A stretch of DNA of 64,000 nucleotides from Planctomycetota bacterium (lineage in GTDB: Bacteria; Planctomycetota; UBA1135; UBA2386), in the NCBI GenBank assembly GCA_965223545.1, contig OZ245006.1:7488001-7552000 (forward strand). Reading direction: 5' to 3'. The notes beneath the pieces are model-generated. The model was not told the origin of the DNA, ran no database searches, and worked only from the letters and a program-made list of their open reading frames with translations. Position 1 is the stretch's first letter. The number at the start of each line of letters is the position of its first letter. Below, one piece after another: positions 10,986-56,000 of the stretch. The translations under genes were made by a program, and so were the position numbers.

Positions 10986-11048
10986 AGGTACGGAGCCAGG
11001 CTCCGTACTCGACACACCGGTGAGGGTACGGAGCCAGGCTCCGTACTC
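10978..11048. repeat. Two tandem copies (38-bp period) of a REP-like palindrome GTACGGAGCC-A-GGCTCCGTAC
   Basis: Perfect 10-bp inverted arms at 10988-11008 and 11026-11046, between convergent acs and the KaiC-like gene. Confidence 0.9.
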
Positions 11049-52327: not shown

Positions 52328-53293
52328 ATGCGCTCCATCCTCGTCCTGAGCACGATGTCCGCCGCGGTGTTTGCCGCTACCGTCTACAGCTATCAGCGAG
52401 GGGCTTTGCCCGGTGCCACCGGCCAGGCCGGTACCGTGCCGGTGACCATCGCCCGCAATGGTCAGGGCTGTGGTCAGTGCCACACTCCGACCGCTGGTGC
52501 GCCGTTGCCGTCGTTGGATTTTGCCCCTCAGCAGCGATCTCTCGACCTGAGCCAGGCGATCCAGGTCACCGCGACCGCCAACGGTGGGGTGAACGGCACC
52601 CACGGCGGTTTCGTGGCGGAGGCGACGGCCGGCGCGTTCAGCGCCGGTACGACGAGCAAGATCGATGCGACCGGTGCGTTCATCACGCACCAGATCGCCG
52701 GGTTCGGGCGCACATGGCAGTTCGGCTACACCGCGCCGGCGACGCCGGGCGTGATCGAGATCTGGGCGGCGGGCAACACTGCCGATGGCGATGCCAGCGA
52801 GAACGGCGACAGCTGGGCGTTCCTCGGCGGCGCGCAGGCCAACTCGGCACCCACGCGGCTGTATGCCAACGCCGCTGGCGTCACCAACCTCGGCGATGGC
52901 TGCGTCGGTGGCTTCGGCCAGTGGCCCGTCCTCGGCGCGCCGCAGTCGCCGACGGTGGGCAACCCCACCTTCCGTTTGGAGTTGCACAGCGCGCCCCCCG
53001 CGACGGCCGCGATCTTCCTGCTGGGCACGACTCCGGTGTCGCTCAGCCTGACCCCGTTCGGCGTCGACAACTGCACGCTCTACACGCTGCCCAGCCTGCA
53101 GCTGACGATTCCGACCTCGCCGGGCGGCACCGCCGTCAACGGCGACGGCACCGCCGCGCTGCCGTTGCCGCTGCCGAACAACCCCGCCATCCGCGGCGTG
53201 ATGCTGCACGCCCAGGTCCTGGTCATCGATCCTGCCAGTGGCCGGCCGGCGAACGCGACCATGTCGAACGCGGTGACCATCACCGTCCTCTGA
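52328..53293 (+). CDS. Secreted Reeler/choice-of-anchor-V-like protein with CxxCH and shared C-terminal domain
   Basis: Signal peptide; GCGQCH, THQ, WQFGYTAP, AGNTADGD; ends MSNAVTITVL. Confidence 0.7.
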   Translation: MRSILVLSTMSAAVFAATVYSYQRGALPGATGQAGTVPVTIARNGQGCGQCHTPTAGAPLPSLDFAPQQRSLDLSQAIQVTATANGGVNGTHGGFVAEATAGAFSAGTTSKIDATGAFITHQIAGFGRTWQFGYTAPATPGVIEIWAAGNTADGDASENGDSWAFLGGAQANSAPTRLYANAAGVTNLGDGCVGGFGQWPVLGAPQSPTVGNPTFRLELHSAPPATAAIFLLGTTPVSLSLTPFGVDNCTLYTLPSLQLTIPTSPGGTAVNGDGTAALPLPLPNNPAIRGVMLHAQVLVIDPASGRPANATMSNAVTITVL

Positions 53294-53320
53294 AGGTACG
53301 GAGCCTGGCTCCGTTCCATC
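53291..53320. repeat. Intact REP-like palindrome (same family as 10988/11026)
   Basis: TGAAGGTACGGAGCC-T-GGCTCCGTTCC. Confidence 0.85.
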
Positions 53321-53353
53321 ACCGACCGAAGGTCAACTTCAAGCCGGCGGTGA

Positions 53354-53370
53354 TGAAGGTACGGAGCCTG
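53354..53370. repeat. Left half of the REP palindrome interrupted by IS110
   Basis: TGAAGGTACGGAGCCTG, ending in the CTG core. Confidence 0.85.
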
Positions 53371-53379
53371 ACCTGAAAC

Positions 53380-54762
53380 TCACCCAGCCTCGGCGATCGG
53401 TATGAGCTTGTACCCGAGGGATTTAGCGTTCTGTCGGAGTCCGACGATGCGTCGCTGGGTGAAGCGCTCCTCGTAGGCCTTGGCGCCTTCGTCTACGTAG
53501 TCCTGGCCGAACTTCAGCATGCGGTAGATGAGCAGGGCCAGTTTGCGGGCGATGGCAAAGATGGCGACGTTGCCGTCCTTCGCGCGGGCGATCTTGCGGA
53601 AGTGTGCGCCGAGAGCTGTCTGAGTACGTTGGAGGGACAGGGCGGCCATCCGGAGGACCGTGGCGATCCTGCTGACCGCGATGTTGTTGCGGTGCTTCTT
53701 GATGCGCTTTCCACCCGAGACGGCTTGACGTGGGCACAGGCGTAGCCAGGAGACGAAGTGCTTCTCGGTCGGGAAAGCTTCGAGGTCGTAGCCGACCTCG
53801 GTGAGCACGATCATGGCCGTGCTCGGGCTGATACCGTCGATTCGCGTGAGATCACACCCGACGAGCCGGCAGAGGGCATCGCGAAGCTCCCGGCCGCCCT
53901 TCGTTCGGATGCTCCTCTCCTTGCGGGGGTCTGGATGCTCGGGGACGTCGGCCGTCTTGGCTTCCTCCGGTTGCAGGTCCTCGATCATCGCCATCAATCG
54001 CTTCTCGACCGACTCGATCTCGTGGTCGGTGTGCTCGAGCATCCGCAAGCCCGAAGCGAGAGTGAAGATGTGCTCCTCGATCCAGGTCCCTTGCAAGTGA
54101 TCCGCGAGCTCCTTCTCGGAGATCTTGCAGCGCGGATCACGCAGTCTGGCGAGCGCTCGAGGGTCGCGTTCACCAGCGAGAATCGCGCGGATGATCGCGA
54201 GGCCGGTCTTGCCGGTGATGTCCGTTACCGCGCGATGGATCGCCACGTTCATCTGATCCAGTGACCGCTGCATCAACTGCGTGTGGCGCGTGCGCTGCGC
54301 GATCAAAGACGCGGCATGGCGTTGCAGGGTCCGCAACGCACAGATGTCCTTCGGAGGCCGGAACGAAGCGCGAATGAGGCCATAGGTGTGTAGCTTCTGC
54401 AGCCAACTGCAATCGCTGGCATCGGACTTGGAGCGGCCCGGCACGTTCTTCACCTCGCGGGCATTCGCGAGGATGACCTCGAAGCCTCTCGACTCGAGTA
54501 GCTCGTAGACGGGAATCCAGTAGACATAGGTGCTCTCCATCGCGACGGATCGCACTCCGAGCTCCTCCAGCCAGTCCGCGAGCGCCTCTAGCTGGGGCGT
54601 CGTCGTTCCGAATCGCTTGATCGGACGACTGCCGTCGGGTGCTGCTGCGCACACCCAGTGCTCGCGGCTGCCGATGTCGATTCCGGCGGCGTTGGGCTTC
54701 ACGACTGGCAATACTTCCGCTGCGGGCTTCTTGCCCTTCCTCGTTCTGCTCTTCCCAGCCAT
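53380..54762 (-). CDS. IS110-family DEDD recombinase/transposase
   Basis: GIDIGS (D), AMEST (E), KSDASD (D,D); C-terminal Tnp20 domain with IDGIS and LCP..AVSGG catalytic Ser. Confidence 0.95.
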   Translation of the reverse strand: MAGKSRTRKGKKPAAEVLPVVKPNAAGIDIGSREHWVCAAAPDGSRPIKRFGTTTPQLEALADWLEELGVRSVAMESTYVYWIPVYELLESRGFEVILANAREVKNVPGRSKSDASDCSWLQKLHTYGLIRASFRPPKDICALRTLQRHAASLIAQRTRHTQLMQRSLDQMNVAIHRAVTDITGKTGLAIIRAILAGERDPRALARLRDPRCKISEKELADHLQGTWIEEHIFTLASGLRMLEHTDHEIESVEKRLMAMIEDLQPEEAKTADVPEHPDPRKERSIRTKGGRELRDALCRLVGCDLTRIDGISPSTAMIVLTEVGYDLEAFPTEKHFVSWLRLCPRQAVSGGKRIKKHRNNIAVSRIATVLRMAALSLQRTQTALGAHFRKIARAKDGNVAIFAIARKLALLIYRMLKFGQDYVDEGAKAYEERFTQRRIVGLRQNAKSLGYKLIPIAEAG

Positions 54763-54784
54763 ACTTCATCCTCATTGTTGTGGT

Positions 54785-54937
54785 GGGCCCGGCCCGAGGC
54801 GGCGATCAAACGAATCTGACCTGCGGGAGTGGGCACGGCGACGTGCCCCTCACCAGTGAAGGATGGCCAACTCGGACCCAGACTGGCTCTGGGGCAAACG
54901 TGCTCCAGTGGCTATTGGGGGCGTAGCTGCCGGGCCC
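54785..54937 (-). ncRNA. Candidate bridge RNA in the IS110 non-coding end
   Basis: Long-range stem GGGCCCGGC/GCCGGGCCC encloses two hairpins; GAGCCAG (target match, 54883-54889) and CAGGTCAG (donor match, 54816-54823) on the transposase strand; boundaries approximate. Confidence 0.7.
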
Positions 54938-54968
54938 CTCACACGTTCCCCTCCCCCTTCCTCAGCGG

Positions 54969-56000
54969 CTAGTTTCCTGCCCTGAAGGGCCGACAAATCT
55001 GCCGGGGCAGGACTGGCTCCGTACCTTCAGTTCCCTTTCCGGGCGCGAGCCACGCTGCGGTGAATGCGCCGAGCCACCCACCCAGCGCGTTGCACCAGAA
55101 GTCGTCGATGGACGGGTTGCGCGCCGAGACGAACAGCTGCAACCCCTCGATGCCTGCGCTGTACGCCGCCGCCCAACCGGCGGCGGCCCACGCCCTGCGG
55201 CGCGCTAGCCACACGAGCACGGCGCCGAGTGGGACGAACAGCGCAACGTTGAACAGCAAGTCACGGCGGTTGGAGAAGCGCAGCGGGAGAAACCGCGGGT
55301 AGTTGCGCACCGACCAAAAACGCGCGGGCACGTCGAGATCGCCTCCGCGGACCCGGTGCTCGACGCCGCCGGCGTCGAACGTGAGCGCTTCGACGTCGCC
55401 GAGCCACGGCCGGTTGTAGGTGGGATCGTTGCCGACGACGAGCCGGTAGTCCGGGTCCCAGCGGGGAAACGGAGACTCGTTCAGTGCGCGATCGACGCGC
55501 ACGACTCCGTCCACCGCGACGCGCAGCCGGTGCGCACCAATGTCGACGGTGATCTCCCGCCACTCTCCTGCAGCCAGGGCACCCGCCACCGTCGCCACCG
55601 GCGCACGCCGCACGCGGCCGCCGGGATCGGAGCCCGGCATGCGCAAGTAGAAGACCAGGTCGTCTCCGTCTTGGCCGATGCCGAAGTTGCGCCGGTGCAC
55701 GTGCAGCGCGGTGGTCACAATCCATCCGAGCGGCGCGTCTTCCACCCGGGCCCTGGCGCGCAGGGAGATGCGCAGCTCGCCGCCGCCCATCGCTACAGCT
55801 TGCCAGGTCGGCGCCGCCTCGGTGCGAGCGATGCCGGGGCCCGCGAACTCGAACCCGCCGCTCGCCGTGGCGCGGGCGGCGTTCTCGAGCCGGCGAGGCA
55901 GTTCCCACTCGAACGGCCGCAGCAGTCCCCACGTGTAGATGCCGCCCATGGCGACGAGGACGAGCAGGCGGGCGCGCACACTCAGGTTCGGACTGGGCAA
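54969..56000 (-). CDS. LamG/concanavalin-like domain fused to a VanZ-like membrane domain
   Basis: NFGIGQDG, LVVGND...RPWLG; NVALFVPLG, IEGLQLF..R..SIDD..N..G; C-terminus now runs into the IS end. Confidence 0.75.
   Translation of the reverse strand: MPSPNLSVRARLLVLVAMGGIYTWGLLRPFEWELPRRLENAARATASGGFEFAGPGIARTEAAPTWQAVAMGGGELRISLRARARVEDAPLGWIVTTALHVHRRNFGIGQDGDDLVFYLRMPGSDPGGRVRRAPVATVAGALAAGEWREITVDIGAHRLRVAVDGVVRVDRALNESPFPRWDPDYRLVVGNDPTYNRPWLGDVEALTFDAGGVEHRVRGGDLDVPARFWSVRNYPRFLPLRFSNRRDLLFNVALFVPLGAVLVWLARRRAWAAAGWAAAYSAGIEGLQLFVSARNPSIDDFWCNALGGWLGAFTAAWLAPGKGTEGTEPVLPRQICRPFRAGN
55013..55029. repeat. Right half of the REP palindrome interrupted by IS110
   Basis: CTGGCTCCGTACCTTCA. 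Confidence 0.85.

Follow-up and report, generated by a model that had tools for sequence, protein, structure and literature searches.

The 64,000-nucleotide window analysed here (positions 7,488,001 to 7,552,000 of the forward strand of contig OZ245006.1, assembly GCA_965223545.1) comes from a Planctomycetota bacterium with a genome of 8.1 Mb and 70% G+C, and carries an IS110-family insertion sequence of 1,645 bp on its minus strand (window 55012–53368, the AG core being assigned to the right end). The left, non-coding end of the element most probably encodes an IS110-family bridge RNA (probability of about 0.85, judged by sequence comparison), as a first-pass annotation of the window had proposed, and this RNA very probably guides the element into a repeated palindrome using a guide layout unlike that of IS621. 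The left end folds into a six-helix structure that covaries among relatives, and two segments on the 3′ strands of its loops covary with the left flank and the right end of the element. The RNA would be transcribed, bind the recombinase and pair with target and donor strands in the manner set out below. Apart from bridge RNAs, no RNA is known to specify both DNA partners of a recombination, and mechanistic studies have dealt almost entirely with IS621.

The ends of the element were fixed by comparison of the 23 near-identical copies in the genome, because the flanks diverge outside these ends; AG is common to the left junction and the right end (CAG in the window copy). The 460-aa transposase matched Pfam DEDD_Tnp_IS110 (PF01548, E = 1.3e-26) and Transposase_20 (PF02371, E = 4.7e-14) and, distantly, the IS621 transposase (PDB entry 8wt6, E = 2.3e-10), which together with ISCro4 makes up the IS110-type entries in the PDB. 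The gene for this DEDD (RuvC-like) and Tnp-domain recombinase is adjoined by a non-coding end that contains two internal loops within a conserved secondary structure, one covarying with the target flank and the other with the donor end, core included, and in these respects the locus has the make-up of a bridge RNA or seekRNA system. The main parts are located as follows (window coordinates).

53368–55012, minus strand: whole IS110-family element; 23 near-identical copies, with flanks diverging beyond the ends
53380–54762, minus strand: transposase (recombinase) gene, 460 aa; open reading frame with the Pfam domains DEDD_Tnp_IS110 and Transposase_20
54763–55012, minus strand: non-coding left end, 250 nt, upstream of the transposase; aligns with the upstream regions of relatives
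53368–53375, minus strand: right end of the element, CAGGTCAG, matched by the putative donor guide and identical to the 3′ strand of loop 2

Relatives for comparison were abundant. Among 8,000 proteins that were scored, 7,941 reached E ≤ 1e-40, most of them at about 58% identity and a length of about 460 aa. A genome scan with one genome per species yielded 578 confirmed stretches, of which 72 loci were kept (L048–L119), distributed over Acidobacteriota, Myxococcota, Verrucomicrobiota, Desulfobacterota and other phyla. Full-length alignment of the 300 nt that precede the gene was possible for 65 distinct sequences; these were reduced to 37 non-redundant left ends for the comparative counts given below, and the alignment of their core region was used to build a covariance model, R1. 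Right ends were located in 26 of the 32 elements with enough downstream sequence.

Six helices with 30 pairs in total were scored in the core region: the closing stem (helix 1), the 4-bp basal stem of module 1 (helix 2), the bulged 4-bp hairpin stem of module 1 (helix 3) and, as helices 4–6, the 5-bp basal stem of module 2 stacked inside the closing stem, the bulged 4-bp lower stem of module 2 and the base of its distal hairpin. In the alignment, 95.4% of base-pair cells were paired, against 80.8% in column shuffles and 33–55% with slid partners; compensatory changes occurred in 22 of the 30 pairs, and 0 of 500 shuffles reached any of the observed measures. G–U pairs were frequent (at one pair in 16 of the 37 sequences) and fit the transposase-sense strand only. 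The predicted RNA is divided as follows.

54785–54937, minus strand: predicted bridge RNA core, from closing stem to closing stem; defined by the 37-sequence structure count and by model R1, which matches all 23 copies
54929–54937, minus strand: 5′ arm of the closing stem, GGGCCCGGC (helix 1; both sides change in 8 of 9 pairs)
54785–54793, minus strand: 3′ arm of the closing stem, GCCGGGCCC (helix 1)
54876–54922, minus strand: putative target-binding module (helices 2 and 3)
54794–54875, minus strand: putative donor-binding module (helices 4, 5 and 6)

The 9-bp closing stem (54937–54929 with 54793–54785) that the first-pass annotation had placed around two modules is present in the minimum-free-energy fold. 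The target module consists of a basal stem (GCCC/GGGT), a 5′ loop strand CCAATAGCCACT (54918–54907), a hairpin (54906–54892) and a 3′ loop strand; the hairpin had been annotated as GGAGCA/TGCCCC and does lie there, but its pairing is G-G-(A bulge)-G-C (54906–54902) with GCCC (54895–54892). The donor module consists of a basal stem (CCGAG/CTCGG), a 5′ loop strand (54870–54855), a pair of stems (54854–54850 with 54828–54825), a hairpin (54848–54831) and a 3′ loop strand. Its GGGCACG/CGTGCCC hairpin was recovered as annotated, and the lower stem beneath it, in which GG(T)GA (54854–54850) pairs with TCCC (54828–54825), is an addition.

Searched against the genome, R1 found exactly the 23 copies, at 126.2 bits each. 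Two genomes in which the transposases are 41–43% identical gave 35 and 32 bits, with the flank and end matches confirmed, and a relative on a plasmid of Burkholderia vietnamiensis G4 (44% protein identity) gave 38.6 bits and showed the same layout and matching rule; a relative on a Citrobacter freundii plasmid (43% identity) gave no R1 match. The genome holds two other IS110-family elements (e.g. L143–L149 and G000:C1:614549–614980), one present in 11 copies with a 515-aa frame and the other in three to four copies with frames of 392–471 aa. R1 matched neither of them, and since it detects none of their copies they should carry different RNAs. Separately, locus L063 was matched at 132 bits on a 1.4-kb contig binned to a Methanosarcinales metagenome-assembled genome, and represents either bacterial DNA binned in error or a rare archaeal host.

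The guide-like segments lie on the 3′ strands of the two internal loops.

54881–54889, minus strand: putative target guide GAGCCAG (5 nt of left flank plus core AG), followed by TC, the first bases of the element; covaries with the element's own left flank
54816–54823, minus strand: putative donor guide CAGGTCAG (6 nt of right end plus core AG); covaries with the element's own right end

As had been annotated, CACTG precedes the hairpin of each module (54910–54906 and 54858–54854), GAGCCAG in module 1 equals the palindrome arm plus core, and the corresponding segment of module 2 equals the other end of the element. The loop-1 segment GAGCCAGTC (54889–54881) is identical to the left junction at 55019–55011, that is, to the flank GAGCCAG and the first element bases TC, and CAGGTCAG at 54823–54816 is identical to the right end at 53375–53368. 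In 20,000 mononucleotide shuffles of the left end GAGCCAG arose 584 times, CAGGTCAG 85 times and both together three times. Covariation of the two segments with target and donor across homologues had been named beforehand as a check of the proposal, and it was observed in both loops. The 7-mer of loop 1 was found 118–162 nt upstream of its own element without mismatch in 25 of 37 cases and with at most one mismatch in all 37, compared with a mean of 1.9 when guides were permuted between elements. The 8-mer of loop 2 was found within 160 nt after the stop codon of its own element without mismatch in 11 of 32 cases and with at most one mismatch in 26 of 32 (permuted mean 2.7). The guide ends in AG in 36 of 37 sequences for loop 1 and in all 37 for loop 2. 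In 32 of 37 sequences the loop-1 guide is followed by a base identical to the first of the element, a count reached in 0 of 2000 permutations, and the next base equals the second element base in 15 of 37, reached in 129 of 2000; the annotated 9-nt match to the junction is thus upheld to its eighth base, whereas the ninth is weakly supported.

The site into which the element has inserted is a palindrome of the repetitive extragenic palindrome (REP) type. The left flank ends in GTACGGAGCCAG and the right flank starts with GCTCC; joined, the two form the palindrome GGAGCCAGGCTCC. The element is placed at the apex of a REP-like palindrome because the joined flanks form this palindrome and it occurs intact elsewhere in the window, at 53295–53317 (about 50 nt past the right end of the element) and as a pair at 10987–11047.

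55013–55030, minus strand: left half of the target palindrome (REP), with GAGCCAG at its end; consensus of the left flanks in 17 copies, GTACGGAGCCAG
53354–53367, minus strand: right half of the target palindrome, GCTCCGTACCTTCA; 22 of 24 right flanks start with GCTCC

GAGCCAG occurs 1,969 times in the genome, counting both strands, and at 86 of the 1,944 unoccupied sites it is followed, in guide orientation, by the GCTCC of the palindrome. Insertion sites of multi-copy relatives (groups of 7, 6 and 5 loci) are conserved over 7–8 nt on their left side, with scarcely any conservation on the right. With about 7–8 guided bases per site the apparent specificity is low, a practical caveat for any use of the system.

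These observations suggest the following mechanism. The loop-1 3′ strand GAGCCAG would pair with the opposite strand of the target, because it is identical to left flank and core on the transposase-sense strand, and in the same way the loop-2 3′ strand CAGGTCAG would pair at the right end of the element, again with the opposite strand. The recombinase may then join target and donor at the shared AG core, and the base after the loop-1 guide would match the first element base as a handshake base does. Both loops contain a nearly invariant CAYUGG, in which YU can pair with the AG core and GG begins the hairpin; the 5′ strands would accordingly contribute only the conserved CAYU, with YU pairing to the core. 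The first-pass annotation had remarked that the long matches lie 3′ of each hairpin and only core-sized ones 5′, in a manner that seemed to differ from IS621, and this stands, since neither the right flank nor the left end covaries with the 5′ strands.

We infer that the recombination site is turned by 180° relative to the direction of the transposase and RNA genes: the CT core of IS621 and ISPpu10 becomes AG when read on the complementary strand, a putative handshake base comes after the guide on the 3′ strand, as in IS621, and the 5′ strands end in the core (C/U)U, as the left target guide (LTG) does. Viewed on the turned site, the 3′ strands would be lengthened versions of the right target guide (RTG) and right donor guide (RDG), with 5–6 nt plus core, and the loop-1 3′ strand would be the counterpart of the RTG plus handshake base of IS621, while LTG and left donor guide (LDG) would have been lost or have shrunk to the core. 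The word 'distinct', as applied to this layout, is accordingly relative, for on the other strand, where the core is CT, the loop-1 3′ strand aligns with the RTG and handshake guide of IS621.

In IS621, the LTG (9 nt) and LDG (8 nt) lie 5′ of each stem-loop and are reported to pair with the bottom strand at a CT core (Hiraizumi et al. 2024, PMC11208158; Durrant et al. 2024, PMC11208160), the RTG of 4 nt lies on the 3′ strand of the target loop (PMC11208160, PMC11208158) and the right donor guide pairs discontiguously (PMC11208160). The present element resembles the published descriptions of IS621 in encoding its RNA in the left end, upstream of a DEDD/Tnp recombinase (PMC11208160, PMC11208158), in having two modules of stem, internal loop and hairpin, one for target and one for donor, with the core included in the guides, and in a putative handshake base directly 3′ of the guide on the 3′ strand of the target loop. 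It differs from IS621 as described there in that the only covarying guides are 7–8 nt long and lie on the 3′ strands instead of the 5′ strands, in its AG core on the transposase-sense strand (CT on the other strand) and in the enclosure of both modules within one closing stem; its protein of 460 aa is also only distantly related (E 2.3e-10) to the 328-residue IS621 chain. Bottom-strand guides on 5′ loop strands, the mark of the IS621 type, were not found here and would appear only if the site were read on the opposite strand.

A second comparison is with the seekRNAs of Siddiquee et al., who report for ISEc21 (IS110-type, upstream non-coding region) a bottom-strand match 5′ of a top-strand match, and for IS1111-type elements the opposite order of matches, a downstream non-coding region and subterminal inverted repeats (PMC11187229). 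The layout here is taken as different from that of IS621 because the non-coding region lies upstream and yet the bottom-strand matches are 3′. Like the IS1111-type seekRNAs of ISEc11, ISPa11 and ISKpn4, the predicted RNA has its bottom-strand-complementary segment in the 3′ position (PMC11187229), and its element's inverted repeats of 6–11 bp come near in length to the 7–17 bp of IS1111-type elements (PMC11187229). Unlike the IS1111 type as described in that report, the non-coding region lies upstream of the transposase, with only 12 nt following the stop codon at the right end; the transposase has 460 aa and not 330–350 aa (PMC11187229), no top-strand match was found on the 5′ side of the RNA, and the left arm of the repeat is set back from the end by about 40 nt. 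With ISEc21 the element shares an upstream non-coding region and a predicted short RNA carrying target matches, but the top-strand match of ISEc21 is 3′ of its bottom-strand match, the reverse of the order here (PMC11187229). In searches made to place the transposase among named insertion sequences, tblastn against plasmids returned only 'IS110 family transposase' labels and one ISArsp3 at 30%, and control genomes gave no loci.

ISPpu10 of Pseudomonas putida is likewise an IS110-family element that inserts into REP palindromes, and its target stem-loop is reported to add to recognition beyond base pairing; as described in that preprint it differs from the present element in following the pairing logic of IS621, since its core is CT and each loop has guides on both of its strands (bioRxiv 10.64898/2026.03.19.712850). 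Many bridge RNA shapes that deviate from IS621 are already in print (PMC11208160, section 12; bioRxiv 10.64898/2026.10.21.760802, section 2.4), the latter a 2026 preprint with 86 covariance models over 32,190 loci. The combination seen here of guides on 3′ strands only, an AG core, a common closing stem and an internal plus an inverted repeat was not found described in the cited portions of this literature, whose supplements or extended figures may show the family.

Several results weigh against a guided RNA of this kind. The single-sequence fold is no stabler than that of shuffles (z = −1.41), no Rfam family matched (a scan of 53200–55200 gave only a chance-level HOTAIR_2), and a scan of the integrated copy for sigma-70-like promoters gave 0 sites; as the fold energy is unremarkable and Rfam is without a match, the case for an RNA rests on the relatives. 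The compared sequences are themselves related, so that the permutation figures overstate independence. The loop-2 segment, when extended, matched the right flanks in only 5 of 26 elements at each of two bases, and these bases are nearly constant. No guide for the left end of the element was found in the RNA region: tests with the core plus the first four bases or with the first five, on either strand, gave 0, 3, 6 and 6 of 37, not above permuted values. Finally, 22 of 24 right flanks read GCTCC although only 86 of 1,944 free GAGCCAG sites do, and because such flanks dominate the insertions and are rare among free sites the 7-nt guide alone does not account for target choice. A further contributor must be involved, be it pairing with the right flank, the shape of the target hairpin or selection against insertions in genes. 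The palindrome confinement could reflect an interrupted pairing of AGC..CU of the loop-1 5′ strand with AG + GCT; it could equally come from recognition of the target hairpin shape, by analogy with ISPpu10, or from the loss of insertions that had landed in genes.

The first of these contributors leads to the strongest competing explanation, namely that the RNA is a four-guide bridge RNA of the IS621 kind, in which the variable 5′ strands also pair with the right flank and the left end of the element in an interrupted form that was missed. The near-confinement of insertions to the palindrome would fit it, as would the loop-1 5′ strand, in which AGC..CT (54913–54907) could pair with target AG + GCT if CA were flipped out, and discontiguous pairing has a precedent in the right donor guide of IS621 (PMC11208160). 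In tests that allowed bulges of 0–3 nt, however, the loop-1 5′ strand matched its own right flank no better than permuted ones (2.12 against 2.20, n = 26), and neither did the loop-2 5′ strand match its own left end (1.65 against 1.74, n = 37), so that no covariation was seen for either. The right flanks of the multi-copy relatives are moreover not conserved. The window element itself cannot separate recognition of the left flank from that of the right, because the palindrome makes the right flank follow the left. A four-guide RNA is therefore considered unlikely, and the bridge RNA with covarying guides on its 3′ strands is preferred.

The left end carries two further repeats.

54857–54864, minus strand: variable part of the donor-loop 5′ strand, ATCCTTCA; its 6-mer recurs in the left end
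54983–54988, minus strand: internal left-end copy (CCTTCA) of the donor-loop 5′ strand, a direct repeat
54971–54976, minus strand: left arm of the subterminal inverted repeat, GAAACT; covaries with the right arm, about 40 nt inside the left end
53375–53380, minus strand: right arm of the subterminal inverted repeat, AGTTTC, directly before the sequence matched by the donor guide

The 6-mer of the donor-loop 5′ strand occurs a second time, in the same orientation, between left-end positions +12 and +45, without mismatch in 22 of 37 sequences and with at most one mismatch in 35 of 37 (permuted 3.5); the reverse complement of this strand was found in the element or its flanks in 0 of 37. Pairing at the RNA level between the loop-2 5′ strand and the region after GAAAC appeared possible by eye in two elements, was not possible in others and was discarded. 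The arms of the inverted repeat were compared in 26 elements by their longest reverse-complement match, with a mean of 8.19 for own arms against 5.87 for permuted ones (permuted maximum 6.62); the repeat is 5–11 bp long across elements and 6 bp long in the window element, and in distant relatives the arm sequences differ while the arms still match each other. The terminal hairpin annotated at 55012–54975 proved to be of two parts: a smaller inner hairpin, situated between the first four bases of the element and the direct repeat of the loop-2 5′ strand, is present in most relatives, whereas the outer 8-bp stem is specific to this element and was rejected as a family feature (mean longest match 3.19 for own and 3.15 for permuted sequences in the 37 relatives). 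In the DNA contigs of three runs a variant of the element has an additional A after 54994, within the terminal hairpin's loop, and accounts for about one tenth of the summed depth of the element. The same contigs showed multi-copy depth; a joint of right end to left end (circle junction) was not seen in them.

Should the loop-2 5′ strand pair with DNA, the only DNA complementary to it is the strand facing the internal copy, and the loop-2 3′ guide would bind that strand too; on this basis the donor could be read as a folded single strand, both strands of the donor loop pairing with the same DNA strand in a mode not described in the cited accounts of IS621. The 3′ strand of the donor loop would then pair at the right end and core and the 5′ strand about 21–31 nt inside the left end; a short terminal DNA hairpin and the arms of the inverted repeat would shape the joined ends into a fold that exposes both sites. 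What the element recognises would thus be its own junction folded as a single strand, and perhaps, as its target, the apex of the REP hairpin, instead of the two strands of a melted duplex. This elaboration of the bridge RNA is a speculative one and seems rather improbable.

Such repeats at the DNA level are also what could be cited for the view that the internal copies of target and right end are DNA sites, bound by the transposase or pairing DNA to DNA, since the left end does carry the subterminal inverted repeat and the direct repeat of the loop-2 5′ strand. DNA sites offer no reason, however, for six helices kept by compensatory changes and strand-specific G–U pairs, and the architecture matches that of bridge and seek RNAs shown experimentally for the same transposase family (PMC11208160, PMC11208158, PMC11187229), which makes this view very improbable. 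Least probable of all is a 5′ leader acting on the translation or the stability of the transposase mRNA, with incidental guide-like matches: the structure does end about 20 nt before the transposase start codon, but a leader gives no account of two loop strands that change with each element's own flank and right end.

If the bridge RNA with 3′-strand guides is confirmed, a large family of thousands of transposases with about 58% identity, in which all detectable specificity apparently resides on the 3′ loop strands, would serve as a natural experiment for telling the essential parts of the IS621 scheme from the rest. Such a family would, in addition, connect the arrangements of the IS110 and IS1111 types and supply a compact alternative scaffold.

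Two further observations concern the surroundings of the elements. A 343-aa open reading frame with VanZ and Laminin_G_3 domains (window 54969–56000, minus strand) crosses the left half of the palindrome and runs 44 nt into the element before its stop codon, so the insertion has replaced its last residues. In at least 14 of the 65 related loci (L051, L057, L061, L066, L067, L069–L073, L079, L084, L094 and L111; also L151:380–470) the loop-1 guide matches a left flank that is itself the right end of a further family member (…GTTTCAnnnnnAG). Some pairs of elements target each other's ends, and in the L073 type the loop-1 and loop-2 guides have the same sequence; as loop-1 guides match the right ends of other members, the elements build up head-to-tail arrays, each inserting directly behind another.

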